A DNA stretch of 64,000 nucleotides from Desulfovibrio sp. (lineage in GTDB: Bacteria > Bacillota > Dethiobacteria > DTU022 > UBA8154): contig JAGVAS010000056.1 in assembly GCA_020060185.1 (NCBI GenBank), forward strand, positions 3,734 through 67,733, read 5' to 3'. Below the pieces are notes generated by a model. It saw only the letters and a program-made list of their open reading frames with translations, was not told where the DNA came from and ran no database searches. The first letter of the stretch is position 1; each line of letters starts with the position of its first letter. The translations under genes and the position numbers were made by a program. Of the stretch, positions 38,394 through 64,000 are shown piece after piece.

Positions 38394-38641
38394 GAACTGG
38401 AAGAGCGGCAGCTTTTACAGTTCCGACCCGGGTAAGGAGAGGCAGGTCTTTAAGGATAGGAAGTAGAGCTCGACCGTAAAAAGGAAAACGGGCTTTGATG
38501 GAGAAATTATACAAAGAAAGCATAAATTTAGTTATATACAGTTATATAAAACTGTATTCTCCTAACGGTATTAAACCTTGTTCCTCCCTGTTGTTTCTCC
38601 CCCGGATCGGGAACAATCTACACAGGAACAGGAGGCCCCGG

Positions 38642-44130: not shown

Positions 44131-44220
44131 ATACAGTGCAGCAACAATACCAATAAAATACCAATAAAGTGTTAGTAAGCGTTTAAAGGCGGTTTCGGTA
44201 AAAATTCTTCCGTGATGACG

Positions 44221-44586: not shown

Positions 44587-44654
44587 ATGTTTTACCCCTT
44601 TCTGTTTTAGAAATATACAGCTACAGCAGAATTGTTTTTAAGACTGCTGCTATG

Positions 44655-45437
44655 TTAAGAAATCCGCAGCCCTTTTCCCAGCGGACATTTTTCTTTTGGG
44701 AGCGTGCACAGTTTGAGACTGTCACGTATTGTGGCTGCAATGCCAAGTTTACTGCGGCTTTTCTTGCGGTTGTACTGCAGCACCATGGGAACCTCACTTA
44801 TTTTCCGGCAAAGGGTTGCCAGCTTTAACAGAAGCTCAACAGTTGCCGAAAAGGTGCTGGACACCAGTAAGGAGCCATCAACTCTGTTACAGGCATTTTT
44901 TATCAGTTCTGCCCTGTAAGCACGAAAATTAACGGTGTAATCGCTTACGCCGGCAAGAGGAAAAATCAGGCCATAGTATTTCCTTGCCCCAAAGCTTAAA
45001 AGGCGGCGAAAAAAGGGGACCCCTACCTGCCCTCCACCCTTGGTGAAACGGGAGGCAATCGCTATTTCTGCTCCGTTCAGGACTGTCTTTACCAGAGCGC
45101 CGATGAGTTCGCCGGGGTGGGTGGCATCAGCGTCCATGGTCACGATACACGAAGCATTCATCCTTACGGCCTCGTAAAAACCCGTCAAGATAGCCTGTCC
45201 CAAGCCTTTATTTTCTGTATGAGACAGTATTGTAACCTTGGAATCAGCTTTTGCCCACTCTATAACTTTCTGCAGAGTTGCATCCCTGCTCCCGTCATTA
45301 ATGATAATTATGCGGTAATCGCATCCTTTAGGCAGTGATATGCCGCACTCAAACATGCTGCGCAGCGCCGGAACAGACAGCTCCTCGTTATACATGGGTA
45401 AAATTATAGCAACGAGTCTCTCTATCAACTTTATCAC
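44655..45437 (-). CDS. GT2 polyprenyl-phosphate glycosyltransferase (DPM1/ArnC-like), copy B
   Basis: 260 aa; same motifs as copy A. Confidence 0.8.
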   Translation of the reverse strand: MIKLIERLVAIILPMYNEELSVPALRSMFECGISLPKGCDYRIIIINDGSRDATLQKVIEWAKADSKVTILSHTENKGLGQAILTGFYEAVRMNASCIVTMDADATHPGELIGALVKTVLNGAEIAIASRFTKGGGQVGVPFFRRLLSFGARKYYGLIFPLAGVSDYTVNFRAYRAELIKNACNRVDGSLLVSSTFSATVELLLKLATLCRKISEVPMVLQYNRKKSRSKLGIAATIRDSLKLCTLPKEKCPLGKGLRIS

Positions 45438-45449
45438 CTCATTGACAAG

Positions 45450-46850: not shown

Positions 46851-48048
46851 CCTCCTTGACTCTTACCAATGTGGGCCGCGTCATGAGATGCCAGTAAATC
46901 AGCACAATAAAAAAGAAAAAGAGAATACGCCCAAACAGGGTATGGGCCAGAAAATTAAAATTCCTGCCGAAGCTGTAAATAATAGCTACAATTATCATCA
47001 AGCGCACCATGTTAAAAGAAAGCAGCGCAGCGACCCCTACCAATGAATAAAGAATTCTTTTGGAAAGCCTGCAGACAGGATAAAAGAGGATCAAGCCTAA
47101 AAAAACACCGATCTCCAGGATGCCTGAGCTTTCAATATCTATGTCTATTGTTGTCCAGCTTTCATCGATCTTGATAAACACCAGGATTGTGCCAGGAGCT
47201 TTATCAAAAACAAAGGTTATAATATCAAAATAATTCAGTAAATGGTGGAGAGCCAGGCCGGTCAGGTGCTCGATACGGTACTCTAGAAGCGAGCCACGGA
47301 AAAGCAGAATAAACAGGAAAGTAAAGCCTACCGCGCTCCATATGTAATAGAAAAGCCAGATACGGTGCCGGTATAGTATAAATGAACCTGTCAGCCAGCA
47401 CAGGGCCAGAAATGTTATCCATATCCTGTTCCTTACGACAACTGGAAATGGTTTCCATTGAATATCTCCTTCCGAGGGGATTCGGTCGTCTTGAAGAACG
47501 GCAGTGGAAAGATAAAACCTGATATACTGGGCGGGGTAGACATGGAGGTCGGCCATGGGAATACTAAATTCAAAGCAGCTGCCGCCGCTTATGGACCCTT
47601 CTCCCCAGTCCCCCTCGTAGGTAGAAAGCAGCTTTCCCTGTGACGAGTACAGCTCTACAAGCACTTCCCCTGTATCATAAGTCGGTTCATACAATACTTT
47701 CGCAAACTTGTCAATGGCGTTATTATAGCTGCCGTTATCGTTAATATCCAAATTAAGCCTGCACACATAGCTGCTCCCTTCTTTAACTGGCTCGCGCAGC
47801 TCTACCATGAAATAGAGGATTCTTTCATTTTCATTGGTTCCCCAGGACATTGATTTAAGTCTTCTGCTTTTTGAAGCGTCGTCTTTAAAGTCGATGTGGT
47901 AGGAAGTGCGCCCTTTCCAGTCGTCAAATTGCCCGTCCAGCCGTATTTTTTGTAGAAATAAAGACCCCGGGGGCCACAGTAATATTAGCGCCACACATAT
48001 TGCCGTTATGATAAAATAAAAAAGGCGCATATCAGATCCTAACCTCAC
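46834..48048 (-). CDS. membrane protein partner of the GT2 synthase: N-terminal TM + roughly 190 aa extracytoplasmic domain + C-terminal 6-TM domain; family unknown
   Basis: 404 aa intact; translationally coupled to the upstream (4-nt overlap) and downstream (17-nt overlap) genes; C-terminal FNMVRLMII...NFNFLAHTLFGR motif. Confidence 0.5.
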   Translation of the reverse strand: MRLGSDMRLFYFIITAICVALILLWPPGSLFLQKIRLDGQFDDWKGRTSYHIDFKDDASKSRRLKSMSWGTNENERILYFMVELREPVKEGSSYVCRLNLDINDNGSYNNAIDKFAKVLYEPTYDTGEVLVELYSSQGKLLSTYEGDWGEGSISGGSCFEFSIPMADLHVYPAQYIRFYLSTAVLQDDRIPSEGDIQWKPFPVVVRNRIWITFLALCWLTGSFILYRHRIWLFYYIWSAVGFTFLFILLFRGSLLEYRIEHLTGLALHHLLNYFDIITFVFDKAPGTILVFIKIDESWTTIDIDIESSGILEIGVFLGLILFYPVCRLSKRILYSLVGVAALLSFNMVRLMIIVAIIYSFGRNFNFLAHTLFGRILFFFFIVLIYWHLMTRPTLVRVKEDVENA

Positions 48049-51000
48049 AGTTTCTTACGAATGTAAAAAAAGCCGTATCCGAGACACAAAAGGGAAAGCA
48101 CGGATAGGACCGCTCCCCAGCGATAGACAGGCGGCCTTTCCAGGTAGATTATGATTTCATGATCGCCGGCGGGGATTTTCAGCCTCAGCAGGTTTTCATA
48201 AATTTCGTAAGGCCAGGGCTCCCCGTTTATCTTCACCTTCATCCCATCAAGGGCGGCGACGGGAACGATCACATCAACATCATTCTCGACGCTGCAGGTC
48301 ATTACATAACCGTCCTCGCTGGCCTGGTAATTGAGCAGCGGTATAAGCGAAACAGGAGCATATTCCGTCCTTAATGCGAAAATATCTTTCAGGAGCTCCA
48401 AGACCAGAGCATCCTTTGTTAAAAAGGTATGGTAGGGCAGGTTCCCGCCTAAAAAGTGGATTTTCCTGCTCTTTATCAGCCTGCTCCCGTAAACGGGCGC
48501 GCTCATCCCGAAATATTCAAATTCAAGCTCTACTTCATCCAACCCCTGAAGCACCCAGGCTTTCCAGACATCAATATCCTCGAGAAAAAAAGGCTCCAGA
48601 AGGTATCTTTCGCCTTTCCGCCCCATGAGTTCCAGCTGGCCCCGGAGAGTAACCAGCTCACCGTAAACTTCCAAAAACTCCGGCTGCCTGGCCAGTATAT
48701 CTTCCTGCATCCCGGTAAGCTCGACAAACACCTCTCCTCCAGAAGCGGCATAATCCAGGATTACCTGTTCCGCTCTTGTCTTGGAGGACCATTTTGCCCC
48801 GTACAGGATAACACTGCTGTACCTTTTCAGCTTTTCGGGGTCATAGCTGTCAATATAGGTAGAAACGCCCATCTCTACATTGGGAAACATCAGGGCGATC
48901 GTTGGAGCATACTCGCCGATGACAAGGACGTCATCCTGCACCTCAACCAGGTAGGGTATGTCGATACCGGCATGCCAGATGCTGATCCCGTCTATTGTTA
49001 CAATATGGCTGTATCCGGCTTTTTCCGCTTCAAATGAAAAAGCCTGCGGATCCTTGATTACATCGTCCTTTACAAGCAAATCGGTCGCCCCCAAAAGAAC
49101 ACACGACCGAAACAAAAAAGGATAATACTGGAATTCCAAACCCGTGTTAATGAGCATGATATTGGGGGAGGTGGTAGCGCCCTGCCAGGCCCACCCAAAT
49201 ACCTGCTCTCTTCCTGATTGTTCTGCAAAAAGATATGAAGGGGTGGAACCGAGCCTGCTTAAATCTATAGTTGCTACGCGCCAGCCCGGGGTTGCCTGTA
49301 ATATCTCTGCGCTCTCGATCAATTTAGGGGCTCTCGCGGAGGTATGGGCAAGCAGGCGCACGGAAAAAAAAGAGTCCATCAAAAATGCCGCTGAAAGCAT
49401 AATAACAACAACAGGCCCCGCTTTGCTAAAAGGAAATCGAAATGGAAAGGCCCATTTTTTGACTGGGGAAAAAGCCAGGCTGGAAGCAATAACAGAGAGT
49501 GCCGCAAAGCCGGCAAAGTAATGCGGCCACAGCAGGTGGCTTAAGGGAAGGAGTAAATATAAAAGCCGCAGTGAAGGAAAAGTGAATGCTATTAAGATTG
49601 CTCCGCAAATGGCCAGGCTTTTGGCCCACGGCGGTTTTGAACGCCAGGTCAAGATAATAAGGGTTAGGGCAAAAATAATGCTGATTCCCCAGTAAAAAGC
49701 CTCCCGGTTAGCAAAACGATAAAAGGGATCTAGAGATATCGCTGCCGGAATGAGATTTTCGACTACATAAGCTTTTACCGCCTCAGCGTTGATCCCGGTA
49801 ATACCGCCGACAAGGGCCGGCAGCAGCCACCACCCTGTCGAAAGAACTCCTATAGCAATTACCAAAACTCCTCTCGAAAAATCTCTTAGTCGGCAGCCGC
49901 TCAAGAACCAAAGGAAAAAAGCAAAAAGTCCCAGGGAGATAGAAAAAATCGCTCCAAACATGGCATGCGTGAGAATAACCCCGTGCAAAAGAGCGACAAA
50001 AATAATGATGTTGGAAAAAGACCTTTTTTCTTCAATTACTTTTAAAAAGAAGGCAAACAAAAGGGGCAGCAAAGCTGCGGCCAGAACACGGGGGAGGTTT
50101 CCTTCTGAGAAGGCAACACGCACGTTATCGATCCAAACGCTCCAGATTATACCCGCCAGCGTTGCCGCAAAAAGCCCTATGCGGTTGGCCCAAAAAAGCC
50201 ACGCCAGCCCTCCGCCAAGAGCACAGGCAAAAATAAAGTAATTTCCCGCCATGAAAATGTCAGCGCTGAAGGAACGCAACAAGGCCAACAAGTAATAAGG
50301 AAGAGGGGCCCAATAGCGAAAAGGTTGAACTCCGTTGTACCAATACTCAGTAAATTGGGGAAAATAGCTGCCTTTGAGGATCTGTTCGTACAGAAACTCT
50401 GCTTTCAAAAGATGCCCCCAGGCATCAGAACCCCACGGGTAATGAAGCCTGAATTGGGGCGTGAGAACATAATAATAGGCAAGGAAAGCCAGCAGGCTAA
50501 TTATCAGTGCGGATACGATATAATGGTGAACAGCATATCTGTAAAAAACCTGTCCGGAAAGTCTTTTGTCAGGTTGTTTGACAGGAATGGCATCCTTTAA
50601 ACCGTCCTCGACGGCAGTATCTGCTTTTAAACTGCTTTCGACGGCCGCGGCAATTTCCCTGCGGTAATCTGAACTTTCCGCACTTTCCCTGCTGCTTTCC
50701 GCCAGGGAATCAAGTGCGGTATTACGGTTGCTTACTTCTATTCCGCGGAGAGGCGTTTCCCAGAGACTAATACTGTCAAGCCCCAATTTTAACCCAGATA
50801 GTGCATCTTCCAGCCGGTTGTAAAAGTACATGGCCATATTCTCTGTCGTGGGTTGGAAAATATTGAAAGGATGAATTTCATTCAGAATTTTATCTTCATA
50901 TTGTCCAAAAACAGACTTGATACAATCTACAATGGTGGCAAAGGGTATTGGTTCATCATTTTCACTGGAAGGAATATCAACTTTCAAATGGACCTGCCAG

Positions 51001-51506
51001 GAGTGAGCATGAACCGGACCGGCTTTTTCGGTAAACGAAACATAATGGCGGGCATTAAGAAAAGAAACCAGCTGGATAGAGTAAGCCTTGGATTCAGCAA
51101 GGGGCTTCGGTTCCCAGGGGGAGGAGACAATTTCCTTTTTACTGCCTGAAATTTCTAATTCTGGCCCGATTTCCTCAGCCAATTGTTTATTTTGCTCTGC
51201 TGATACTTTGTTTAGAATTTCCCGTTCCATGGATGAAAGTTCGTTGTTTAACCGGGCGATTTCATCCTCAACAATCTGCAATTCTATTTTTTTTGAAGCA
51301 ACTATAGCTTCCGCTTCAGATATGATGCGCCGTGCCTTAGCCCGGGCATTATCTTCCATCTCTTTTGCCACCCTGATGCTTTGAGCAAGCGAACGCTGGA
51401 CATTTAAAAAATGGGATTCATTTGCAGCAATTATCGCCTTTAACTCGGTGACCTGCAGCTCGTACTTTTTTATCTTGCCCAGTAACCCCTGAAGTTCTTC
51501 GCGCAA
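48045..51506 (-). CDS. multidomain fusion: DivIVA-like coiled coil + QueD/6-pyruvoyl-tetrahydropterin-synthase-like domain + roughly 12-TM domain (PTPS-related membrane protein architecture) + C-terminal extracytoplasmic domain + TM anchor; putative GT-C-like glycosyltransferase
   Basis: 1153 aa. Residues about 1-110 are a coiled coil similar to DivIVA at 51897..52427. Residues about 150-250: FNARHYV..GPVHAHSWQV...LNEIHPFNIFQPTTENMAMYFYNRL aligns to QueD FEAAHRL..CGRLHGHSF...[20 protein letters not shown], keeping the His ligands but losing the catalytic Cys. After that come multiple TM helices and a soluble C-terminal domain. Confidence 0.7.
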   Translation of the reverse strand: MREELQGLLGKIKKYELQVTELKAIIAANESHFLNVQRSLAQSIRVAKEMEDNARAKARRIISEAEAIVASKKIELQIVEDEIARLNNELSSMEREILNKVSAEQNKQLAEEIGPELEISGSKKEIVSSPWEPKPLAESKAYSIQLVSFLNARHYVSFTEKAGPVHAHSWQVHLKVDIPSSENDEPIPFATIVDCIKSVFGQYEDKILNEIHPFNIFQPTTENMAMYFYNRLEDALSGLKLGLDSISLWETPLRGIEVSNRNTALDSLAESSRESAESSDYRREIAAAVESSLKADTAVEDGLKDAIPVKQPDKRLSGQVFYRYAVHHYIVSALIISLLAFLAYYYVLTPQFRLHYPWGSDAWGHLLKAEFLYEQILKGSYFPQFTEYWYNGVQPFRYWAPLPYYLLALLRSFSADIFMAGNYFIFACALGGGLAWLFWANRIGLFAATLAGIIWSVWIDNVRVAFSEGNLPRVLAAALLPLLFAFFLKVIEEKRSFSNIIIFVALLHGVILTHAMFGAIFSISLGLFAFFLWFLSGCRLRDFSRGVLVIAIGVLSTGWWLLPALVGGITGINAEAVKAYVVENLIPAAISLDPFYRFANREAFYWGISIIFALTLIILTWRSKPPWAKSLAICGAILIAFTFPSLRLLYLLLPLSHLLWPHYFAGFAALSVIASSLAFSPVKKWAFPFRFPFSKAGPVVVIMLSAAFLMDSFFSVRLLAHTSARAPKLIESAEILQATPGWRVATIDLSRLGSTPSYLFAEQSGREQVFGWAWQGATTSPNIMLINTGLEFQYYPFLFRSCVLLGATDLLVKDDVIKDPQAFSFEAEKAGYSHIVTIDGISIWHAGIDIPYLVEVQDDVLVIGEYAPTIALMFPNVEMGVSTYIDSYDPEKLKRYSSVILYGAKWSSKTRAEQVILDYAASGGEVFVELTGMQEDILARQPEFLEVYGELVTLRGQLELMGRKGERYLLEPFFLEDIDVWKAWVLQGLDEVELEFEYFGMSAPVYGSRLIKSRKIHFLGGNLPYHTFLTKDALVLELLKDIFALRTEYAPVSLIPLLNYQASEDGYVMTCSVENDVDVIVPVAALDGMKVKINGEPWPYEIYENLLRLKIPAGDHEIIIYLERPPVYRWGAVLSVLSLLCLGYGFFYIRKKL

Positions 51507-53238: not shown

Positions 53239-54270
53239 TTAATAATTTAGGCGCCGGGAAGGCAGGTCGATTTTCAAGGCTGTTTCCGCTATTTTCGGGT
53301 CAAACTGGGTTCCGGAACAAAGACGGAGCTGCTCCCTGACCTGTTCCACTGTTTTGGCCGGGGCATAAGGCCGCTGGGAAAGCATAGCATCGATGGCATC
53401 GGCAACGGCAATTATCCTGGCACTGCATGGAATCTGCAGCCCCTTGATACCCTCCGGATAGCCTGTCCCGTCAAATTTTTCATGATGGTGAAGAACGATG
53501 GGGACTGCTTCCTTGAGGAATTCGACTGGGGAGATAATTTCCGCCCCAATAACAGGGTGCTGTTTGATCACTTTAAATTCCTCAAAAGTAAGGGTAGAGG
53601 GTTTTCTTAAGATATGCTCCGGAACGCCGATCTTCCCGATATCATGCAGTATGGCCGCCTGCTGCAGCAGGTCCATTTCCATGGCGGAAAGTCCCATCTC
53701 CTCCCCCAGGATCATCGTAAACATAGCAACCCTTTCCTGGTGACCCTTGGTATAGGAATCTTTGGCATCAATGGCCGCTACCAGGGAGCGCACCGTCTCC
53801 AGGTAATGCTTCTGGATATTGTTGTAAGCGCGCTCAATTTCCTCCTTAAGGGAGTCATTTACAACCTGCAGTTCGTTAAGCCTGTTCCTGATGGCTGTGC
53901 TTGTAGTGCGGCGTGAAAGCCCCTTTTCCACAACTTCTTTAACCGAGCTGCAGTCAAAGGGTTTAATAAGGTAATCCAGGGCGCCGTTGCGCAGGGCATT
54001 GGTAGCCGTATCCACGGAGGCATAGGCGGTTATCATCACCACCTCCGTTTCCGGAGCCTTCTTTTTTACTTCGGCAAGCAGTTCGATGCCGTTAATGTCG
54101 GGCATCCTTATATCCAGTATAACCAGGTCGAATTCGGAAACATCAAGATAATCCAGGGCCTGCTTACCGTTGTCTGCGGTAACAACCTCATACTCGTCCC
54201 GCAAGATCATCCTCAGGGCCTCCCTGGGGCCGAGTTCGTCATCGACAACCAGTATTCTCGGGTTTTCCAT
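53239..54270 (-). CDS. response regulator: REC + HD-GYP domain (RpfG-like c-di-GMP phosphodiesterase)
   Basis: 343 aa; ILVVDDE...DLVILDIRMP receiver; HDIGKIGVPEHIL and HHHEKFDGTGYP HD-GYP motifs. Confidence 0.85.
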   Translation of the reverse strand: MENPRILVVDDELGPREALRMILRDEYEVVTADNGKQALDYLDVSEFDLVILDIRMPDINGIELLAEVKKKAPETEVVMITAYASVDTATNALRNGALDYLIKPFDCSSVKEVVEKGLSRRTTSTAIRNRLNELQVVNDSLKEEIERAYNNIQKHYLETVRSLVAAIDAKDSYTKGHQERVAMFTMILGEEMGLSAMEMDLLQQAAILHDIGKIGVPEHILRKPSTLTFEEFKVIKQHPVIGAEIISPVEFLKEAVPIVLHHHEKFDGTGYPEGIKGLQIPCSARIIAVADAIDAMLSQRPYAPAKTVEQVREQLRLCSGTQFDPKIAETALKIDLPSRRLNY

Positions 54271-54274
54271 ATAC

Positions 54275-56296
54275 TCATCCCCCTTTTCCGGAAAAAATAG
54301 GCAAAATGACTTCTATCTCCAGGCACTTGTCCTTGGTTAAGGACGCTTTCAGACGCCCGCCGTGATCCTCGATTATTTTCCGGCTTACAGGCAGACCCAG
54401 CGAAATATAGCCGTTTTGATGGGCAGTTAAAGGTTCAAACATTTTCTCCACGTCTTCAATTGACGCTTTTGTCTGGTTGTCACACAAGCGAATACAGGCG
54501 CCCCCGGAAAATATCTTGTCAGTATAAAATGTATGTATATGAATTATCCCCCCGACTTCCACGGCCCTGAAACAATGGCGCAGCAGGTAGGAAAAAGCCC
54601 TGGCCAGAAGGGTTTTGTCCGCCCTGATGTTTAAAGGCTCTCCAAAATAAGCGGTATCTACTGTGGTCTCCTGCCCCATCCCCTGTTCCTGCAAGAGTAA
54701 AAGTCCCATGTCAAGGGTTTCATGGATATCAACAGAGCTGTACTTGTAGGAAAGAGGCGTGGAAAAAGCAATGAGCTGCTCTACCAGTTCATTTAACCTC
54801 TTAATCTCCTGCCGTACTGTATAGGTAAAGAATTCCCGGAAGGAGCTGTCGTCGTATTTTTCCGTTAAAAGCTCTGCAAAGGTCTGGATGGCAACCATGG
54901 GATTCTTTATTTCATGTGCCAGTTGGCCGACAAATTTATTAAGCACATCAAGCCGGTCAGCCTGGCGCCGCTCCACCTCCAGCTGTTTTCTTTGCGTAAT
55001 ATCTTCAAAGATCATGACGCTGCCGAAGGTTTCTCCCTCTATGCTGAGCAGCTGGTAAGTATTGATCTCCAGGGGGATACGTCCCGGGGCTAGTTCAATC
55101 TCTTCTTTGAAAAATGCTTTTCCAGTAGTCAATGTTTCATAAAGCAAATCACCCAGGGGGCTGGGAAGGGAGCGCAGGTCTTTTCCCATAACTTCCTGCG
55201 GTAAAAACTTAAGAAGTTCCCCGGCACGAAAATTAAAGGTTATAATACGCTCTTCCCGGTTAATAGCCACAACTCCGCTGTTCATGCGCTGCAGGATACT
55301 TTCGATATATGACTTCTGATCGCATACCTGGTGGTAAAGGGCGATATCCCGCAGGGCCATAGCCACATTCCCACAGAGGGTAAAAAGTATCTCCAGTTCC
55401 TCTTCATAAAAGGAAGAACGGGTTATTTTGGGCCCCAGGTTAAGAATCCCCACCAGTTGCCCGTGGGCCAACAACGGTATACAGGCAACTGCCTGGAGCA
55501 GTTTCATTTCCTGAAGGGCTTCAGCGGAAGAAATGCCGTTGGGAGCGTAGTGCACTTCTTCAATGCGCAGTATGCGCCCTTCTCCGGCCAACCAGGAAAT
55601 AAGTCCCGTGGACGATTTAAAGCGCAAGCTAAAAGAAAACTGTGGGTCAAGCCCTCTTTGCGATACAATTTTATACTGGTCCAGGTTCTCATCGTATAAC
55701 AAGATCGACAACTTGCCCACCGGGACCAGTTCGGCAACGGCATTCATAAAAAGATCCAGGAGGCGGTTCCTGTTGAAATTGTTGCTCAAAGCCTTTGAGA
55801 ATTCGCGTAAGACGCGCTCTTTATGCAGAATCGGTGAAAAATGGTTTGGAAGCTCTTGCTTACCGTTATTATCACCTGCAGCTTTTTTAAGGTTCTGCAT
55901 CTCAAAGCGAAGCTGAACCCTCTCCCAGGCCCGCGCAAGCTTAATATTAACCTGCTTGCTAGAAAAAGGTGCATGAATAAAATCATAAAAATATGGCAAA
56001 AGGGAATCTTCCACGGCAGCCTGGCCGTCAATAAGGCCGAGGTAGGTTAAATCGGGCCTCCGGGAACACGCTTCTTGTATCCATGGTAAAATACCATGCA
56101 TAGTTGTATCTACAAGTATTATGCCGGAAACAAGATTTTTCAGCAGCTGCAGGGTTTTTGGACCCATTTCGCATTCCAGGAAAGTATATTCTTCCGCAAT
56201 ATATTCTTTTACTTTCCTGAGAGTGCTGTCTTTACTGCATACAAGGATAACCAGTTTCAATATGTTTCCCTTCTTTCGGGATTCTATAGGTGCCAC
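54275..56296 (-). CDS. sensor histidine kinase with N-terminal receiver-like domain, GAF and PAS domains
   Basis: 673 aa; HEIKNPMVAIQTFAELL H-box; C-terminal HATPase region. Confidence 0.75.
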   Translation of the reverse strand: MAPIESRKKGNILKLVILVCSKDSTLRKVKEYIAEEYTFLECEMGPKTLQLLKNLVSGIILVDTTMHGILPWIQEACSRRPDLTYLGLIDGQAAVEDSLLPYFYDFIHAPFSSKQVNIKLARAWERVQLRFEMQNLKKAAGDNNGKQELPNHFSPILHKERVLREFSKALSNNFNRNRLLDLFMNAVAELVPVGKLSILLYDENLDQYKIVSQRGLDPQFSFSLRFKSSTGLISWLAGEGRILRIEEVHYAPNGISSAEALQEMKLLQAVACIPLLAHGQLVGILNLGPKITRSSFYEEELEILFTLCGNVAMALRDIALYHQVCDQKSYIESILQRMNSGVVAINREERIITFNFRAGELLKFLPQEVMGKDLRSLPSPLGDLLYETLTTGKAFFKEEIELAPGRIPLEINTYQLLSIEGETFGSVMIFEDITQRKQLEVERRQADRLDVLNKFVGQLAHEIKNPMVAIQTFAELLTEKYDDSSFREFFTYTVRQEIKRLNELVEQLIAFSTPLSYKYSSVDIHETLDMGLLLLQEQGMGQETTVDTAYFGEPLNIRADKTLLARAFSYLLRHCFRAVEVGGIIHIHTFYTDKIFSGGACIRLCDNQTKASIEDVEKMFEPLTAHQNGYISLGLPVSRKIIEDHGGRLKASLTKDKCLEIEVILPIFSGKGG

Positions 56297-56319
56297 CTGT
56301 ACGAAACATAAAGCTGTAT

Positions 56320-58848
56320 TTAAAGCCGTTCATTTTCTTCCATTGTTGTAACCAGTAGGGTCACGGGGAGGCATATTTCAAAGACCGTCCCTTTCAAGCT
56401 GCTATTAAATTGGACCGTGCCCCCGTGATCGGTAATAATCCGGTGACTTATACTTAAACCAATTCCTATACCCTCCGTTTTGGTAGTAAAAAAAGGATCA
56501 AATACCCTCTCTTTCTGGCGGGGGTCTATTCCTGTTCCCGTATCTTTAATTAATATTTTTACTTTTCTTTGTGGTAAAGCACCCCTGCCGGCCTCAACAG
56601 CAGGTTTCTCCACAGAGAATATCTCCACTTCCAGCTCTCCACCCTCAGGCATGGCCTGTATACCGTTAAGGCAGATATTTAAAAGGGCCTGTTTTAACTG
56701 ATCCCGATCCGCTTTAAGGGCGGGAAGATCCTTGTGGTAGAGCTTGCAGAGCTGGATTTTTTGTGTGTTGAGCTGAGGAGTTAAAAGCATGAGAATTTCA
56801 TCCATCACAACCTTTATGTCCACATCTTCAAAATTGGGCTGGGGGCTTCGGGAAAAGTTAAGAAGCTCCATTATCAGCTTGTTAATACGCTCAATTTCCT
56901 GTTTGACTATATGGGAAAAACCGTGGCGAAATTCATGATCATCATATTTATAGGGCAGAAGTTCGGCAAAGGTCTTAATGGAAACAAGGGGGTTTTTGAT
57001 CTCATGCGCCATCCCCGCAGCAAGTTCTCCCAGTGAGGCAAGCCTCATTGCCTGGCTTTTTTCCCTTTCCAGTTCCTTGATACGTGTTACATCACTTAAG
57101 ACCATAATTGCTCCCCGTTCCCCTGTATCCAGAGACTCCACCTGGGCTGTACTGCAGCACAGGAAACTTGTGTGGTTGCCTGCCTGTATTTCCACTTCCT
57201 CTTCGCTTCGTTTATGCCCGTTATTTAACGTCTGTATTATGGGGCGATACAGACCTACATCCAGGACTTCTTCCGCCCTGCAGCCCAGTATCTCTCCGGC
57301 AGCAATTCCGGTCAGCCTTTCTGCCGTGCTGTTAAAAGTAGTTATCCTTCCCTGTCCATCTATAGCGATCAACCCGTTGCCCATATTTGTAAGGATATTC
57401 TCCAGGTATTGCTTGATCTCCAGGACCTCCTGGTACAGCCGTGCATTTTTCAAGGAAACAGCAATCTGATAACTTAAAGTGGAAAGCAGGTTTACATCAT
57501 CTCGAGAATATGGTTCTCCGGATATTTTAAATCCCAGGCAAAAAATAGCTTCCAGTTTTTCTTCCATAATGATGGGGACAACTGCCTCGCCATGTAGTTT
57601 TCTCATCTCCGCTACCAGCAGTTCCCGCTCCCCTTCGCTTACTAAATCTTTTAAATCCGTCAGCAGCAGGACGTCAGGCTTTTTTTGGAGATAAGCTAAG
57701 AGATGACTCCCAGGCTCCAATGGCTGGATATCTCCTGCGGGGGAAAAAGGCTCGATGCTTTTTTCGGCTGCAGCAATAAAGGAACCATCCTTGTTTTTCA
57801 GTAGAAAAACACCTCGCTCGATATAAATGGTATTTACAACCTTGTCCACCAGAAAACGGAGAAGCTCGTCCAGCCTTAAAATAGAAACCATGGCTTTATT
57901 GGCATCTATCAGGGCATCATAATAATCGTAGGCGCCCCGGTAGAAATAGCGATCGACCAGGGACTGGGCTTTATCTTTTAACGGCTGGAAAAAGATAGCC
58001 ACCAGGATTACCAAAACTAATGTAAAAGGAAGATTATTAGACTCCAAATAAATCCGGAAATTTTTTTCCATAACGAGCAGCAAAATAACATATATCCCGG
58101 CCAGAAGAATAACAGCCAGAATATAAGCCATAACCCTGCGCACGGCTATCCGTATATCCATTAATCTGTACTTCACAATAGCATAAGCGATAGAAACAAT
58201 CATAATGAGGGTAAACACCGGCCCGAACGGGCGCAGATCAACAGCAGTTACCCCAAGCAAAGGCAAAAAAAGATTGGATAAAGTCCCCATAATAAAGGAA
58301 ATAAGTATGCCGCCGATAAAATAACGGAGTTGATTGCGAGCAATACCCCTTGACAAATGCAACTGCCGGAATAGTTTATAAATGGTGTAAATGGTCACTC
58401 CGCTAAAAAATAGAGGATATACCGGAAATAATGGGCCATAAAGCGGCTCCTTGTGTTCCAGGGGGAACCCTATACCAGGAATTATTGTAGGTGTAAAGCT
58501 CAACACAGCCAATATTAAACTAAAGCTAAGAACAATTATAACTTTTTTATAAGGATAAGCTTTTTCATCTTGAAAAGCATCAACAAGGGCATAAACAAAC
58601 CAGGGAGTTGTTGCCGCTACAGCGTGAGAAAACCTTATCCAGAATAATAAACCGGCATAGTCGCTTATAAGAGTTATAACCAGAACAGTAAAAGTCCAAA
58701 GGGAGGCATTCAGGGCAAACCCCAAAAAAAGACGGTTAAGTAGAGTATAGGGAGCCTTTCTAAAGGCAACAACCCCTAAAACCAGGTTTGCTGCCGCCGT
58801 AAAACCCAGCAGCCATTTAACTAAAAAAGAAAAGTCCATCTCGGCCAA
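56320..58848 (-). CDS. sensor histidine kinase with N-terminal 7TM (HisKA_7TM-like) domain, GAF and PAS domains
   Basis: 842 aa; seven N-terminal TM helices; HEIKNPLVSIKTFAELL H-box; HATPase G-boxes (DTGTGI, GIGLSIS). Confidence 0.75.
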   Translation of the reverse strand: MAEMDFSFLVKWLLGFTAAANLVLGVVAFRKAPYTLLNRLFLGFALNASLWTFTVLVITLISDYAGLLFWIRFSHAVAATTPWFVYALVDAFQDEKAYPYKKVIIVLSFSLILAVLSFTPTIIPGIGFPLEHKEPLYGPLFPVYPLFFSGVTIYTIYKLFRQLHLSRGIARNQLRYFIGGILISFIMGTLSNLFLPLLGVTAVDLRPFGPVFTLIMIVSIAYAIVKYRLMDIRIAVRRVMAYILAVILLAGIYVILLLVMEKNFRIYLESNNLPFTLVLVILVAIFFQPLKDKAQSLVDRYFYRGAYDYYDALIDANKAMVSILRLDELLRFLVDKVVNTIYIERGVFLLKNKDGSFIAAAEKSIEPFSPAGDIQPLEPGSHLLAYLQKKPDVLLLTDLKDLVSEGERELLVAEMRKLHGEAVVPIIMEEKLEAIFCLGFKISGEPYSRDDVNLLSTLSYQIAVSLKNARLYQEVLEIKQYLENILTNMGNGLIAIDGQGRITTFNSTAERLTGIAAGEILGCRAEEVLDVGLYRPIIQTLNNGHKRSEEEVEIQAGNHTSFLCCSTAQVESLDTGERGAIMVLSDVTRIKELEREKSQAMRLASLGELAAGMAHEIKNPLVSIKTFAELLPYKYDDHEFRHGFSHIVKQEIERINKLIMELLNFSRSPQPNFEDVDIKVVMDEILMLLTPQLNTQKIQLCKLYHKDLPALKADRDQLKQALLNICLNGIQAMPEGGELEVEIFSVEKPAVEAGRGALPQRKVKILIKDTGTGIDPRQKERVFDPFFTTKTEGIGIGLSISHRIITDHGGTVQFNSSLKGTVFEICLPVTLLVTTMEENERL

Positions 58849-58862
58849 CCATCCTTTAGTTT

Positions 58863-60095
58863 CTAGCTTTTAGTTAAAAGCAGAGAGGCATTGCAGCCTC
58901 CAAGGCCGTGCAAATTTACCAGTGCCGTTTCAATCCTGGCCACTCGCCCCCTGTTAGGAACGCAATCAAGATCACAATGCGGATCAGGAAACTCGTAATT
59001 TATGGTAGGAGGAACAAATTTATTTTGAATAACCTGGGCTGCGGCAATGGCCTGCAAAGGGCCTGCAGCAGCCAGGGGGTTGCCGATCATGGACTTAATG
59101 GAACTAACGGGCAAATTATAAGCATGCCGCCCAAAAACCTCTTTAATCGCTTTGGTTTCCATTTTATCGATCAATTTATCCCCAGGGGCATGAGCACAAA
59201 TGTAATCTACCGTAGAAGGTTGGAGGCGTGCCTTCTGCAAAGACTGGGTCATCGAAGAAGCAATAGACGCTTGTAATTGTTTTAATGAGGCAGCATTGGA
59301 TATCCCCCACCCGGCAACCCTGGCATATACTCTTGCTCCACGGGAATAAGCCCTTTCAGCTTCCTCCAGGACAAGTACTCCCGCTCCTTCAGCCAGTACG
59401 CCGCCATCACGTTTAGCATCGAAGGGCCGGCTGGCAGAAGCAGGTTCATGATTAAATAAAGAAGAAAGAAGACCAATAGCACAAAAACAGGAATGAACAA
59501 AAGGAGTAAGGGGAGCATCACCTCCACCGGCAAGAACCAGATCAGCTTCCCCCCTGAGAATGGATTCTACACCATAAATAATACTGAAAAGCCCGCCGGG
59601 GCATCCGGCAGATAATGTAATAACCTGCCCTGAACAATTAAATACAGTACCCAATTCACTGGCAGCCGCATGGGGAAACGAAGATGAAAGAACTTCTGGC
59701 TTTGTTGAACCGTTTTGTTTAAAACAATCATATTCTTTTTCCACAACTCCCATATCTGATGTGCTTATCCCAACCAGGATACCTGATCTACAGTGGGCGA
59801 ATTCATCCTCAGTTATTTCTGCATCCTGCAATGCCAGGCGTGCCGCAGTTATAACAAGATGGGTGCTCCAAGCCCTGCCATTTTCGTGATAAGGCTCCAC
59901 TGCCTCAATCCATTCCAGGGGAATTTCACCTGCTACCTGGGAAGGATATCCTGTGGGATCAAAGCGGGTAATGCGGCGCACACCTGATTTGCCCTCCTTA
60001 AGAGCATTCCAGAAACTCTCCTTCCCGACGCCATTGGGAGCTACAGCACCCAGTCCGGTAATTACCACTTCCCTCATGTTTATCCTTCCTTTCAA
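58863..60095 (-). CDS. beta-ketoacyl-ACP synthase (KAS I/II family), non-canonical: second catalytic His apparently replaced by Asn
   Basis: 410 aa; VVITGLGAVAPNG, active-site Cys in LSAGCPGG, first His in ICAHAPGD; KSMIGNPLAAAG where FabF has KSMTGHLLGAAG. Confidence 0.7.
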   Translation of the reverse strand: MKGRINMREVVITGLGAVAPNGVGKESFWNALKEGKSGVRRITRFDPTGYPSQVAGEIPLEWIEAVEPYHENGRAWSTHLVITAARLALQDAEITEDEFAHCRSGILVGISTSDMGVVEKEYDCFKQNGSTKPEVLSSSFPHAAASELGTVFNCSGQVITLSAGCPGGLFSIIYGVESILRGEADLVLAGGGDAPLTPFVHSCFCAIGLLSSLFNHEPASASRPFDAKRDGGVLAEGAGVLVLEEAERAYSRGARVYARVAGWGISNAASLKQLQASIASSMTQSLQKARLQPSTVDYICAHAPGDKLIDKMETKAIKEVFGRHAYNLPVSSIKSMIGNPLAAAGPLQAIAAAQVIQNKFVPPTINYEFPDPHCDLDCVPNRGRVARIETALVNLHGLGGCNASLLLTKS

Positions 60096-60859
60096 GCCCC
60101 CTTGGAGAAGGGCTTCACAGCCTCCAAAAACCAGTCCTGCCCTCCATAGACACGCTCCATGGAAATAAGTTCAAAACCACAGCTTTTTAGCATAAAGGAC
60201 AGCTCTTCGCCATTTAAGAAATGAAAGGACTGCTGATCCTTAATAAAGTAGTTTATAAGCAGGAATACAATTAAAAACGGAATAAGGTATACAATCTGAC
60301 CGGTAAGAATTACAGGCCACCATAAAGGGGCTCTTTCTCTAAGCTGGTAAACATGTTCTTTAAAAACCGGTCCCATTTTGGGTTGAAAAGGCGGGGTAAC
60401 AAGGATCATCTTGCCGCCTTTTCTCAAAACTCTGTAAATTTCTCCCAGTAAAAATGTAGGATTGTCCACGGCATAAAGAACATTAACACAGATTACCCCC
60501 TGAAAATCATCCTCTGGAAAGGGAATGGGATGGTTAAGATTCACTTCCTGCAGGATGACCTTCTGGTTATTTAGATCATTTTCTTTTACCTTAAAGCTGG
60601 CCCGTCTAAGCATTGCCGGAGAAAAATCAACCCCCACGACCTTTATTCCTGAATGAACCCGTATAAGGTTATAAAGAAAATTTCCCGTACCACAGCCAGC
60701 ATCTAGAATATGCCAGCCATCCTGAGGATTAAGGCTTCTTGTTACATTTATTATTAACTGGCGATAAGGTAAAAACCTCAGCATGACAGCGTCATAAACT
60801 TGAGCATAAAGCTGCCATAAATATTTTTTATTTTCTTCATTCATATTAGGCTTCCCCAT
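60092..60859 (-). CDS. class I SAM-dependent methyltransferase
   Basis: 255 aa; ILDAGCGTGNF motif I; 4-nt overlap with the KAS gene. Confidence 0.75.
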   Translation of the reverse strand: MGKPNMNEENKKYLWQLYAQVYDAVMLRFLPYRQLIINVTRSLNPQDGWHILDAGCGTGNFLYNLIRVHSGIKVVGVDFSPAMLRRASFKVKENDLNNQKVILQEVNLNHPIPFPEDDFQGVICVNVLYAVDNPTFLLGEIYRVLRKGGKMILVTPPFQPKMGPVFKEHVYQLRERAPLWWPVILTGQIVYLIPFLIVFLLINYFIKDQQSFHFLNGEELSFMLKSCGFELISMERVYGGQDWFLEAVKPFSKGA

Positions 60860-60873
60860 ACTATTGATATTTT

Positions 60874-63414
60874 TTATTGATCTTCGGTCAGGCTTATAAA
60901 AATATCAACCAGCCTGGGATCGAACTGCACACCGCTGTTTTTTTTCAGTTCCCTGATCGCTTCGGCATGGGAAAGGGGACCCCGGTAGGGCCTGGGGCTG
61001 ATCATCGCTTCATAAGCATCTACAATAGCCAGGATACGGGAATAAAGATGGATTTCATTCCCTTTGAGGCCTTTGGGGTAGCCGTTCCCGTTCCAGTATT
61101 CGTGATGCTGTAAAATATAATCGGCCAGCTGGGCCATTTCCTCAGAGTTGCGGGCTATTCGGCAGCCGATTTCCGGGTGGCGCTTGATTTCTTCCCATTC
61201 GTCATTATTCAGGGCTTCCTTTTTAAAGAGGATAGACTCGTCAATGCCCACCTTGCCGATATCATGCACCTTCGCCAACCGAATAATATCCTTTAACTCC
61301 TCATAGGGTAAGCCGATAGCCTGTCCCAGTAGAAGCACCATGCGCTGCAGCCTCTCTTCATATTTCCCGTCCCGGAAGTCTTTCTCCGCCAGGAGGGACA
61401 GCAGGTAGTCGACAATCTTCTTTTTGACTGTTTCGCTGCGCTCAAATTTATTTTTATACATGCTGCCGTCGGCCTGCTTGAATATCTCCATGATTCCCCG
61501 GGAAGCCTGATTTCCGGTGGCAAAACCGACAGACAGGCTCAGGGGAATACCATCCTTTTCCCTGTTATACTCCTCCACGGCCTTATGAATACGTCCGGCA
61601 ATCTCCTCTACAATATTTTCATCAGTCGATGGAAGGATAACAGCAAACTCGTCTCCCCCCACACGGGCCACCACATCAGAGGAGCGGAAAGGCTTCCTGA
61701 TAATCTCTGCCGCTGTTTTTAAAAGCTCATCGCCCTGGCCGTGCCCCATAATGTCGTTGACAAGTTTCAACCCGTCCACATCACAGACCACGACGCTGAT
61801 AGGGTAGTGGCGTTCCGTATCCAGGCGCCGTATCTCCTCCTCAAAGTATACCCGGTTATAAAGGCCCGTGAGGTGATCGTGCATACTGTAATATTTCAAT
61901 TCTTCTTCATTGAGTTTGCGCTCGGTAACATCACTGGCTGTAAATGTAACCCCGGAAACTTCGCGTTGACCGTCAAAAACCGGCGAAAGGATAATGTCCA
62001 GCCACCTTTCCCTGCCGTTAAAATCTTCCATCCTTGCTTCCATGCGGAGCTGTTCACCGCTTTTAAAAACCTCTGCTGCGGCCTCCAGCAATATTCCCGC
62101 TTCCCGGGGCTTAAGTATTTCCTCAATGCGCCTTTCTACAAGGCTGCTGGTGTCTATTCCCAAAAAAGCTGCGCAGGACTTGTTGACGAAAGTGAAGTTG
62201 TTTTCCCTGTTTAGAACCCAGATAAGGCTGGGAACGCTATCCAGCACCGCGTTCTCTGCAGCGTTCCTTTTCCCAAGGGAGGCAAGCAGGGAACGCTGCA
62301 GCACTTCATCTTCTCCCGCCGGGACAGACCTTAAATCGAGTAGAACTTTTCCCCTTTTTAACCGGGGAATAACCGGGGGGTCCCCTTTATATAAAAGATC
62401 ACATATCTGCCGGGGTGAAAGTACCGGTGAGCTTAGTGTTACCTGCCAACTGGGCAATATCTCCTGGCCGCGGCGTCTTCCCATTAACTGGGCGTCTTCA
62501 TTTGCCAGCCCCACATCATACCTGCCCTCCCCGGCACTCAGAAGTTCAGCTGAGTGCCGGGCCAGGTGCCGGGCACGTTCTTCTATGCTCTCCACCGGGG
62601 CCGTAATCATGCGCAGCAGGGGAATTTTTTGCATGGCATCCCTCTCATCGAGATAAAGCTCTACTGTTGCTTCCAGTGCTGCTATGCTCATTATGTCCGC
62701 ACCTAACGCCGTACTCAGTGGGTTTTTCTTTACCTGGGAAAGATACCTGTCCTTCCCGGCGATAATCCCTACAGGTGGCCCTCCTAAAAGCTTGTCTCCG
62801 GGAAAAACGATTACGTCAAAACCGTCATCAAAGAGTTTCTGAACCTGCATCCCCCCGGGCAGGCCAAAAGGCGCCAGATCCAGCAGTGCAGCACAGCTCA
62901 TGATCTTAACTGCGAGAAGGTTAGATTTCCGGCGAAGTTCGGACAGTATGCCGTCCTCTACAGATACCAGGCTGTTCCACCCGTTAATACTTACCAGGCA
63001 GGCGGCATCATTATCACTTCTAGAGCTGTTGCAGTCCAGTAGTATGGCGAGCTCCTTTTTACCGGCTTTCCTCAGCCTTGCCCCGCTGTGCTTTAACATG
63101 GCAGCAACAGCGGAAGAAAATTTATCGGCCAGCAGGTCCTCCCGGGAGACGAAAACTTCCTTACCGCGTGCCAGGGCATGGAACACAAGAAAAGCCGCAG
63201 CCTGAATGTTATTAGCTACCAGGATATCTTCAGCTCCGCTAAGGGTACAGAGAAGTTCGTCAAGCTGTTCAAGCAGGCCTTCACCGGCCAGCTGTTCCAG
63301 CCATCCCCGGGATGATGCTGCCGCATTTGCAGCCCTGACAGCCTCCCCGGCCAGGGGAGGTTCCTTTATAGCGCTGTGAAAGATTATCCCTGTAGCATTG
63401 ATTGGAGGAGGCAA
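60874..63414 (-). CDS. multidomain c-di-GMP signalling protein: SelA-like (PLP fold) N-terminal domain + PAS + GGDEF + HD-GYP
   Basis: 846 aa. VIVFPGDKLLGGPPVGIIAGK...STALGADIMSIAALEATVELYL parallels SelA GDKLLGGPQAGIIVGK...ALRADKMTLAALEATLRLY, with the PLP-Lys conserved. Then PAS, then RVGGDEFAVIL (GGDEF), then HDIGKVGIDESIL + HHEYWNGNGYP (HD-GYP). Confidence 0.75.
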   Translation of the reverse strand: MPPPINATGIIFHSAIKEPPLAGEAVRAANAAASSRGWLEQLAGEGLLEQLDELLCTLSGAEDILVANNIQAAAFLVFHALARGKEVFVSREDLLADKFSSAVAAMLKHSGARLRKAGKKELAILLDCNSSRSDNDAACLVSINGWNSLVSVEDGILSELRRKSNLLAVKIMSCAALLDLAPFGLPGGMQVQKLFDDGFDVIVFPGDKLLGGPPVGIIAGKDRYLSQVKKNPLSTALGADIMSIAALEATVELYLDERDAMQKIPLLRMITAPVESIEERARHLARHSAELLSAGEGRYDVGLANEDAQLMGRRRGQEILPSWQVTLSSPVLSPRQICDLLYKGDPPVIPRLKRGKVLLDLRSVPAGEDEVLQRSLLASLGKRNAAENAVLDSVPSLIWVLNRENNFTFVNKSCAAFLGIDTSSLVERRIEEILKPREAGILLEAAAEVFKSGEQLRMEARMEDFNGRERWLDIILSPVFDGQREVSGVTFTASDVTERKLNEEELKYYSMHDHLTGLYNRVYFEEEIRRLDTERHYPISVVVCDVDGLKLVNDIMGHGQGDELLKTAAEIIRKPFRSSDVVARVGGDEFAVILPSTDENIVEEIAGRIHKAVEEYNREKDGIPLSLSVGFATGNQASRGIMEIFKQADGSMYKNKFERSETVKKKIVDYLLSLLAEKDFRDGKYEERLQRMVLLLGQAIGLPYEELKDIIRLAKVHDIGKVGIDESILFKKEALNNDEWEEIKRHPEIGCRIARNSEEMAQLADYILQHHEYWNGNGYPKGLKGNEIHLYSRILAIVDAYEAMISPRPYRGPLSHAEAIRELKKNSGVQFDPRLVDIFISLTEDQ

Positions 63415-63430
63415 AATAAATCCCCTTCCC

Positions 63431-63988
63431 TTAATTGTTTTGCAAACTTTTAATCGTATTCTGAATAAATTCCCGTTCCTGCGGTGTTAAAAGCTCGTTC
63501 CGGCATAATTTATCCAGGTCGGCGGGAATGGCAGATTTCTCTTCTTTATGGTAAAAGCCGGGGGAAGGCATATCCTCTCTTATAAGGGATGAGGAAAAAT
63601 AATCGTTAAGCAGTTCCAGGAGGGCTTTGCCCATGCGTTCTACGGTTTTTTTCTGGGGTTTCCAGGAAGGCTTTAGCATCAACTGTGGATTTTCCTCCAC
63701 TTCCAAAGAAGCCGCCTCTTCCGGTGTCACAGGCACCTCTGTCTTTTCCTGAAAATATTTTTCTACTGAATCAAGAGCACGCCCCGTTACGACCAAAGCA
63801 GTTTCCAGCAGGTGATCAGTCCCGTAACGGTGAGCCAATTGTTTCAGCTCTTTCCTGGCCGGCTCCAGGAGCCGGCAAATTTCTTCGGCCCGGGAGTTGT
63901 TATCTTTCCCGAAACCTTCAGCCGCCCTTTCATAGAGCTTTACATACCGTTCTGCCAGCTTCAGGGCGCTTTTAAGGCGGTTAATCAC
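63431..63988 (-). CDS. hypothetical protein
   Basis: 185 aa, no recognisable motif. Confidence 0.4.
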   Translation of the reverse strand: MINRLKSALKLAERYVKLYERAAEGFGKDNNSRAEEICRLLEPARKELKQLAHRYGTDHLLETALVVTGRALDSVEKYFQEKTEVPVTPEEAASLEVEENPQLMLKPSWKPQKKTVERMGKALLELLNDYFSSSLIREDMPSPGFYHKEEKSAIPADLDKLCRNELLTPQEREFIQNTIKSLQNN

Positions 63989-64000
63989 CTGCCACGAGCC

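Follow-up and report, generated by a model that had tools for sequence, protein, structure and literature searches.

Residue roles in bacterial selenocysteine synthase (SelA) have been assigned in some detail: K285 binds pyridoxal phosphate (PLP), selenophosphate is bound by three arginines (R86, R312, and R315) that are positioned by R119 and D284, and S217 and S282 hydrogen-bond PLP (PMC4607533); in the E. coli enzyme R97, the equivalent of R86, contacts the Lys-PLP (PMC11047290). The decamer interface of SelA involves R174, T191/T192, D199, and residues 218-224 (PMC4607533), and the enzyme is inactive when it is dimeric or N-truncated (PMC4607533; PMC11047290). MJ0158, an archaeal member of the same superfamily, forms dimers and binds no tRNA(Sec), and no activity is known for it (PMC11047290). 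The input domains of cyclic di-GMP (c-di-GMP) enzymes decide which signals control biofilm formation and motility, and most of these signals are unknown. Here we describe a gene in a 64,000-nucleotide stretch (the window) of contig JAGVAS010000056.1 (assembly GCA_020060185.1, a Bacillota/Dethiobacteria genome), whose product joins a SelA-like N-terminal domain to PAS, GGDEF, and HD-GYP domains (Table 1). The PAS-GGDEF-HD-GYP core is of a known kind; an input domain derived from an enzyme, here SelA, on a c-di-GMP enzyme is previously undescribed. We consider it probable that the SelA-derived part acts as a non-catalytic input or scaffold domain on a c-di-GMP-metabolising protein.

HMMER searches of the fusion open reading frame (ORF) against Pfam gave four strong matches without overlap: SelA (PF03841; residues 5-364, E = 9.5e-56, 189.8 bits, profile positions 2-366 of 367), PAS_4 (residues 391-500, E = 1.5e-15), GGDEF (PF00990; residues 511-658, E = 7e-37), and HD_5 (PF13487; residues 673-835, E = 2.5e-31, profile positions 5-170 of 170). 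The first-pass annotation, made from the letters of the window, had read the gene as a SelA-like region aligning through the PLP-lysine segment, followed by PAS, an apparently intact GGDEF, and a complete HD-GYP; this layout is borne out, except that the HD-GYP domain, full length as it is, has six of the eight expected metal ligands (see below). K208 of the fusion protein aligns to the PLP lysines of the A. aeolicus (K285) and E. coli (K295) SelAs. The start codon, a TTG four residues ahead of the INATG motif, lies upstream of the SelA-like region: 14 of 14 relatives start 3-12 residues ahead of INATG, several of them with TTG, and these conserved N-termini rule out a start downstream of the SelA-like region. 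An assembly chimera is ruled out as well, because the same architecture is found in about 15 protein clusters from independent assemblies (NCBI, ENA, JGI, and Logan).

Of these clusters, about 14 were recovered by a full-length search (48-100% identity); a further member, P0188 (854 aa, 36% identity), has the same architecture. All come from uncultured Bacillota/Dethiobacteria metagenome-assembled genomes (MAGs), several of them from biogas fermenters, and their database labels are limited to "diguanylate cyclase" or "hypothetical". When 1.84 billion representative proteins were scanned with HMMER for the SelA-like domain, its N-terminal placement on such a protein was seen only in two full-length sequences (P0125 and P0188) and two fragments (P0001 and P0251); the remaining top matches were ordinary SelAs of about 470 aa, or genuine SelAs with a metabolic N-terminal extension. 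Among the latter, P0232 carries a MobA-like NTP-transferase and P0310 a long extension with Mur_ligase_C ahead of a genuine SelA core (Pfam SelA about 465 bits in each), either as real fusions or as merged gene calls. A scan of genome contigs returned only 41-42% identical PAS-GGDEF-HD-GYP proteins from Syntrophomonadaceae MAGs, without the SelA module. Our literature search found no paper connecting SelA with GGDEF or HD-GYP proteins, and SelA is not mentioned in the HD-GYP architecture survey. The architecture is thus very rare and undescribed in the literature searched, and the novelty claimed for it holds; the underlying concept, a fold-type-I domain serving as a sensor, has a precedent in MocR/GabR (PMC5320631).

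The N-terminal domain is clearly related to SelA, at some distance. It shares 33-40% identity with genuine SelAs, from which it has kept the INATG N-linker, the D-K-LLGGP loop, and the ALEAT motif. Genuine SelAs score 460-480 bits on the Pfam SelA model, of which the fusion domain (190 bits) reaches about 40%; on TIGR00474, to which it aligns over model positions 77-452 of 455, its 204.3 bits fall short of the equivalog cutoff (267.9). The AlphaFold2 model of residues 1-385 (pLDDT 88.7, pTM 0.88) has a single low-confidence loop, residues 146-153, and the best Foldseek matches of this model in the PDB are all SelA structures (3W1H, 3WCO, 3W1I, and 8UZW; TM 0.82-0.86, with 3w1h/3wco at 0.85-0.86), with the next matches, DgaE (TM 0.67) and Cap15 (TM 0.60), well behind. 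The predicted structure thus shows that the SelA fold is retained in the N-terminal domain. Descent from DgaE or MJ0158-like paralogs was ruled out, since both the structural and the sequence neighbours are bona fide SelAs.

What has been retained is the fold; most of the functional residues have gone. We aligned 13 N-terminal domains of the family with 129 genuine SelAs and the A. aeolicus and E. coli enzymes. Eight functional residues (K285, D284, R86, R119, R312, R315, S217, and S282) are each invariant in 129/129 genuine SelAs, and the fusion family keeps only D284 (13/13) and K285 (12/13). In the window protein the other six are replaced by E18 (R86), L47 (R119), W146 (S217), P205 (S282), T235 (R312), and G238 (R315); H215 of SelA is likewise replaced in the family. 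More generally, of the 97 columns at least 95% invariant in genuine SelA, 35 survive (kept in at least 80% of the family) and 62 are lost. The losses include the motifs HTNLGR, EIGGxFRxP, GTTN, HxSN, GFT (which is deleted), DxGSG, and GGGxLP, along with K318 and R412. The Asp of DxGSG, 38 residues ahead of the Lys and by analogy with fold-type-I architecture the expected anchor of the pyridine N1, is I171 in the window protein and hydrophobic in every family member. At the decamer (dimer-dimer) interface one of ten conserved positions is kept and residues 221-224 are deleted; the low-confidence loop of the model coincides with this deleted segment. At the same loop, P0128, P0134, and P0001 (L003:327-1661; L022:3001-5784) carry a Thr/Asp/Ala-rich low-complexity insert of 30-60 residues; in L003, at a coverage of about 1x, apparently the same gene is split into SelA-like and GGDEF-HD parts, probably through sequencing errors. 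The alignment demonstrates, at the level of sequence, that the active-site determinants of SelA are lost in the fusion domain.

These losses bear on three other ways of reading the domain. The first is a selenocysteine synthase, genuine or moonlighting, that is tethered to a c-di-GMP enzyme; this would account for the Pfam SelA match and for the retained Lys. However, the tRNA(Sec) D-arm-binding N-domain (PF12390) has no Pfam match in the fusion ORF, nor in the upstream ORF, which has no Pfam match of any kind; the decamer interface and all selenophosphate-binding Arg are gone; the score falls under the TIGR00474 cutoff; and there are no sel genes within the 64-kb window. Because the N-domain, the decamer interface, and the functional residues are lost, and dimeric or N-truncated SelA is inactive, the domain as predicted from its residues cannot serve as a selenocysteine synthase, and this explanation is effectively refuted by the sequence.

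The second is a PLP-dependent sensor similar to MocR/GabR, in which PLP on K208 would detect an amino-acid-like or selenium-related ligand by forming an external aldimine and so switch the cyclase; a working fold-type-I PLP domain sensing such a metabolite was what the first-pass annotation had suggested. Twelve of the 14 members still have D207-K208 and the LLGGP loop, N140 and N141 have mostly been preserved, the most conserved segments (INATG and DKLLGGP) surround the former active site, and the cited precedent for fold-type-I sensor domains (PMC5320631) would make such a use conceivable. Yet the residues that hold PLP in SelA (S217, S282, R86/EcR97, H215, and the DxGSG Asp) are all replaced, though invariant in 129/129 genuine SelAs, and two members of the same architecture lack the Lys itself, P0130 having Thr (GDTLLGGP) and P0188 Arg (GDRMVGGP) in its place. 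With every selenophosphate-binding Arg gone, the link to selenium is unsupported. Canonical PLP binding by the domain is therefore unlikely on these residues, nothing supports selenium sensing, and we regard a PLP-dependent sensor as unlikely overall; neither the proposed PLP chemistry nor the proposed ligand is supported by the comparison.

The third takes the domain for a relic without function: a selA paralog in decay that came to be joined, in frame, to a PAS-GGDEF-HD-GYP gene, where it is merely tolerated. The massive loss of catalytic residues, the accelerated evolution, the clean absence of the module from a close relative (P0133), and the large low-complexity inserts tolerated in some members would all fit. 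The pattern of conservation argues otherwise: the frame is intact and the length stays at about 375 aa in about 15 clusters, down to 36% identity, the fold is confidently predicted, and at 66 columns, 11 of them family-specific, conservation extends to at least 12 of 13 members. For the three closest pairs (window, L008, and L011), dN/dS (the rate of nonsynonymous substitution divided by that of synonymous substitution) is 0.17-0.26 for the SelA-like domain, 0.14-0.25 for PAS, 0.04-0.08 for GGDEF, and 0.07-0.08 for HD-GYP, figures that a dS of about 1 or higher makes approximate. Across the family, pairwise identity averages 44.6% for the SelA-like domain, 44.1% for PAS, 69% for GGDEF, and 63% for HD-GYP. 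Purifying selection acts on the SelA-like domain as strongly as on the PAS sensor domain. Judged by its conserved positions it is behaving as a sensor or regulatory domain, not as a decaying remnant, and we consider a relic quite improbable. Five of the 11 family-specific columns (E366, E368, D369, S375, and L380) sit in the helix that joins the domain to PAS, the place at which one would expect signal coupling.

In a neighbour-joining tree the fusion family is monophyletic, with a long stem and an accelerated rate, and its nearest genuine SelAs are from Dethiobacteria/Bacillota. The tree shows a single origin of the family as far as sequence can tell, and this monophyly, together with nearest SelAs from the same lineage, is in keeping with one duplication of the selA native to the lineage, after which the copy lost catalysis and was recruited. 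The nearest genuine SelA, P0004 (L012-L021; Dethiobacteria), is encoded in a canonical selA-selB operon, which adjoins genes for an Fe-S/CCG-domain protein, electron transfer flavoprotein (ETF) subunits, and a putative FAD-dependent oxidoreductase. A tRNA scan of the window found no tRNA, hence no tRNA-Sec. The metagenome ERZ27280797 holds both a fusion-family contig and the P0004 selA-selB contig (tetranucleotide r only 0.82 between them), and the window correlates with this Dethiobacteria selA-selB contig at r = 0.96; the shared metagenome and the tetranucleotide composition are only suggestive of a working selA in the same genome as the fusion.

The downstream domains are not equally conserved. 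The GGDEF domain, which we aligned to the active cyclases 4URS and 3IGN, has its GGDEF and RxxD motifs intact. For the HD-GYP domain, we took as reference the eight metal ligands of PmGH (E185, H189, H221, D222, H250, H276, H277, and D305). Six of the eight are present: the HD motif, the equivalents of H250 and D305, the HH pair, and also GYP are kept, while E185 is replaced by K and H189 by R, inside a three-residue deletion. There is no His upstream of the HD motif anywhere in the HD-GYP domain of the fusion, whereas the neighbouring REC-HD-GYP protein of the same operon keeps one. PmGH activity is abolished by H189A, but the active RpfG also lacks the equivalents of both E185 and H189 and is thought to be binuclear (PMC4159591). 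Phosphodiesterase activity in the window protein is thus plausible. In about half of the family the His of the HD motif is lost: among P0125, P0126, P0127, P0129, P0130, P0132, P0188, and P0131, the motif is YD in seven members and CN in one, and in the SelA-less relative P0133 it is HE. These altered motifs suggest that the phosphodiesterase function is being lost or changed in the fusion family, and the HD-GYP domain of the window protein may be a weak or binuclear phosphodiesterase, or a regulatory domain, similar to RpfG and drifting in its relatives. The cyclase, on the other hand, is predicted to be active and to be the constrained, main output of the fusion protein, because the GGDEF and RxxD motifs are invariant while the HD-GYP ligands are partly lost. 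The protein had been called a bifunctional cyclase/phosphodiesterase; the cyclase half of that description fits the intact motifs, and "bifunctional" itself is unproven because phosphodiesterase activity is plausible but not given.

Table 1. Features of the fusion gene and its operon (positions are those of the window)
Feature	Position	Strand	Remarks
Whole ORF: SelA-like, PAS, GGDEF, and HD-GYP	60874..63414	-	846 aa; predicted cytoplasmic, without transmembrane segment
Shine-Dalgarno-like GGGAAGGGGA	63421..63430	-	6 nt ahead of the TTG start; read directly from the sequence
SelA-derived, putative pseudoenzyme domain, aa 1-375	62290..63414	-	begins at the SelA N-linker motif INATG
HSAIKE, degenerate version of the invariant SelA motif HTNLGR	63361..63378	-	R86 (E. 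coli R97) replaced by Glu
Low-confidence loop, aa 146-153	62956..62979	-	replaces the SelA HxSN...GFT segment; part of the decamer interface deleted
GDKLLGGPPVGIIAGK, aa 206-221, retained Asp-Lys loop	62752..62799	-	K208 is the counterpart of the SelA PLP lysine
C-terminal junction helix of the SelA-like domain, aa 366-384, into PAS	62263..62319	-	cluster of family-specific conserved residues
PAS domain, aa 391-500	61915..62244	-	PAS_4; TIGR00229
GGDEF domain (predicted diguanylate cyclase), aa 511-658	61441..61884	-	best-conserved domain in the family
RxxD I-site RSSD, aa 577-580	61675-61686	-	five residues upstream of GGDEF; invariant in the family
GGDEF motif, aa 586-590	61645-61659	-	invariant in the family
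HD-GYP domain, aa 673-835, reduced-ligand variant	60910..61398	-	HD_5; full length
KYEERLQRM segment	61339-61365	-	without the E185 and H189 equivalents
HD motif (VHDIGK)	61252-61269	-	present
HHEYWNGNGYP	61075-61107	-	present
Conserved upstream gene, C-terminal part	63431..64000	-	runs off the window; no known family
S-adenosylmethionine (SAM)-dependent methyltransferase, hydrophobic C-terminal helix (aa ~184-202)	60092..60859	-	co-operonic; synteny
Beta-ketoacyl synthase, KAS-type (Cys-His-Asn)	58863..60095	-	co-operonic; synteny
Seven-transmembrane (7TM)-GAF-PAS histidine kinase, GAF-PAS histidine kinase, and REC-HD-GYP (RpfG-type) response regulator	53239..58848	-	co-operonic; synteny

The fusion gene is the second of seven closely packed genes that form an operon (-4 to 23 nt between neighbours, then a gap of 811 nt), in the order unknown protein, fusion, methyltransferase, beta-ketoacyl synthase, 7TM-GAF-PAS kinase, GAF-PAS kinase, and REC-HD-GYP; this order (up to seven genes) is conserved in homologous loci wherever the flanking sequence suffices. 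The homologs of the upstream protein (L008:2211-4127, L004:5908-7866, L002:8063-9964, and L001:2513-4237) are soluble, Leu/Ala/Glu-rich proteins of 570-650 aa, whose composition suggests a helical protein; searches against Pfam, NCBIfam-type profiles, and the PDB gave no match, and a large protein database yielded just three homologs, all fragmentary. One might take the SelA-like part as a docking domain dedicated to this protein, which would then be the real sensor: the upstream gene ends (stop codon at 63431-63433) 16 nt before the fusion start, the two genes adjoin in the window, L001, L004, L008, and L011, and they overlap in L001. The two elements are separable, however, as L002 keeps the upstream gene without the SelA module and L022 has the fusion without the upstream gene, and the pairing of the candidate partners rests on gene adjacency; we hold a dedicated docking domain to be rather improbable. 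Because L002 lacks the module and L022 lacks the upstream gene, the SelA module is an accessory input with no obligatory pairing with the upstream protein.

The reading we favour, a SelA-derived non-catalytic input or scaffold domain, can be put as a sequence of events and a working model. A selA copy of this Bacillota/Dethiobacteria lineage would have lost its N-domain, its decamer interface, and its catalytic, selenophosphate-binding, and PLP-binding residues, and would then have been fixed in its stripped form as the input module of a PAS-GGDEF-HD-GYP protein. With catalysis gone, the domain would probably need no PLP and would act as a regulatory or scaffold module, most likely a homodimer like other fold-type-I proteins without the SelA ring interface. 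Synthesis of c-di-GMP requires paired GGDEF domains; the pseudo-SelA domain may set or modulate the relative geometry of the two downstream chains and hence GGDEF pairing. A ligand or a partner at the remodelled former active-site region is a possible trigger, and the conserved acidic junction helix (aa 366-384), followed by PAS, would relay the signal to GGDEF. A more specific version, which we put forward only tentatively and consider doubtful, is that the pocket binds a small molecule (conceivably a product of the membrane methyltransferase and ketoacyl synthase of the operon, or a seryl/aminoacyl-type compound) that switches the diguanylate cyclase; if so, this would be the first enzyme of the tRNA-dependent translation machinery exapted as a second-messenger sensor, and would establish a new family of sensor domains. 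Physiologically, the protein is likely to control surface attachment and biofilm, since a Tad pilus, exopolysaccharide-type genes, and two c-di-GMP riboswitches are encoded nearby.

Several points weigh against a non-catalytic input or scaffold domain. Ligand binding, dimerisation, and signal transmission are steps that we only infer. The retained D-K-LLGGP loop and the mostly retained N140/N141 leave some room for residual PLP binding. Of 13 polar intradimer contacts in SelA only 4 are kept, although these contacts overlap the active site, and the dS values of about 1 or above blunt the dN/dS comparison. Finally, P0133 (L002:8063-11443), which is 70% identical over PAS-GGDEF-HD-GYP and lies in the same synteny, does without the SelA module, and tblastn found no remnant of the module at this locus; the core protein can thus work without it.

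The remainder of the window offers a setting for such a protein. It encodes Tad/Flp pilus genes, PilT, family 2 glycosyltransferase (GT2) and PTPS-related membrane protein genes, and an EAL-HDOD protein, and has two c-di-GMP riboswitches on the reverse strand (24731-24818 and 26548-26634): one of the c-di-GMP-I type (86 bits), immediately upstream of T2SSE-RcpC/CpaB, the leading gene of the Tad-pilus cluster, and one of the c-di-GMP-I-GGC variant (75 bits), which precedes the EAL-HDOD gene by about 400 nt. With the Tad, GT2/PTPS, and EAL-HDOD genes and both riboswitches present, control of surface structures by c-di-GMP is clearly operating in this region. The protein at 22529-24631 (reverse strand; 700 aa) joins a T2SSE-type secretion ATPase to a C-terminal RcpC/CpaB, an unusual fusion in the Tad-pilus region. 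Repeated sets of GT2 glycosyltransferases and "PTPS_related" membrane proteins occupy 28899-33184 and 42412-51506 (both reverse strand), one 1153-aa protein joining a PTPS domain to a PTPS_related domain; these sets are probably exopolysaccharide or glycan machinery. Between 34700 and 38500 lie about 3.8 kb with small ORFs only (50-132 aa, mostly on the minus strand), in which we found no tandem repeats and no Rfam match, and an 854-aa ORF without a Pfam match follows at 38495-41059 (forward strand). Promoter and terminator scans did no better than on shuffled sequence.

Within the operon itself, the methyltransferase and ketoacyl synthase frames overlap by 4 nt, and the second catalytic His of the ketoacyl synthase is apparently Asn (IGNPLAAAG). 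As a speculation, the methyltransferase, the ketoacyl synthase, the two kinases, and the REC-HD-GYP protein together loosely recall a lipid-signal module of the Rpf/DSF (diffusible signal factor) type.

The family offers a clean and evolutionarily recent case in which a housekeeping enzyme of the selenocysteine machinery appears to have been duplicated, stripped of catalysis, and recruited into signalling, and it comes with natural comparators: a genuine selA-selB in the same class, a close ortholog without the module, and relatives in which the Lys is replaced. Selenium biology gains from it a view of the parts of the SelA fold that persist without catalysis. It is also a warning for annotation, as a Pfam SelA match, even one that includes the "PLP lysine" motif, implies neither selenocysteine synthesis nor PLP chemistry.

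Compared with bacterial SelA (PF03841/TIGR00474; 3W1H and 8UZW), the fusion domain shares the fold and the INATG, D-K-LLGGP, and ALEAT motifs, but it is without the tRNA(Sec)-binding domain, the decamer interface, and the functional Arg, Ser, and Asp residues, and it is joined to signalling domains. To the two earlier kinds of non-canonical SelA, the orphan enzyme of Helicobacter pylori and MJ0158, it adds a third. The orphan SelA of H. pylori and H. acinonychis (PMC4607533) is likewise without the tRNA-binding N-domain and the 218-224 dimer-dimer segment, and it is likewise under purifying selection without a role as selenocysteine synthase (PMC4607533). However, the H. pylori protein keeps K285, R86, R312, R315, R119, and D284, of which the fusion domain has only D284 and K285, and it is a stand-alone protein thought to be an enzyme still, whereas the fusion domain is joined to PAS-GGDEF-HD-GYP. 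MJ0158 (2AEU) and DgaE (7LC0), SelA-superfamily proteins that also lack the N-domain, are structurally more distant and stand alone, while the fusion domain derives from a bona fide bacterial SelA; DgaE, a D-glucosaminate-6-phosphate ammonia-lyase, is an active PLP enzyme, unlike the fusion domain.

On the signalling side, MocR/GabR (a winged helix-turn-helix, wHTH, domain with an aminotransferase-like fold-type-I domain; PMC5320631) represents the same reuse of an enzyme-derived domain as a regulatory input. There, the domain derives from an aminotransferase, PLP is central to sensing, and the output is DNA binding; here, it derives from SelA, the PLP residues are mostly lost, and the predicted output is c-di-GMP turnover. 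No wHTH match was found in the fusion ORF with Pfam and NCBIfam-type profiles, and the likeness to MocR/GabR is one of analogy only. Similar to RpfG (PMC4159591), the HD-GYP domain of the fusion is without the E185 and H189 equivalents. Over its C-terminal 470 aa the fusion has the known architecture of PAS-GGDEF-HD-GYP hybrids (P0136, P0137, L006, and L007; 39-42% identity), none of which has a SelA-like N-terminal domain.

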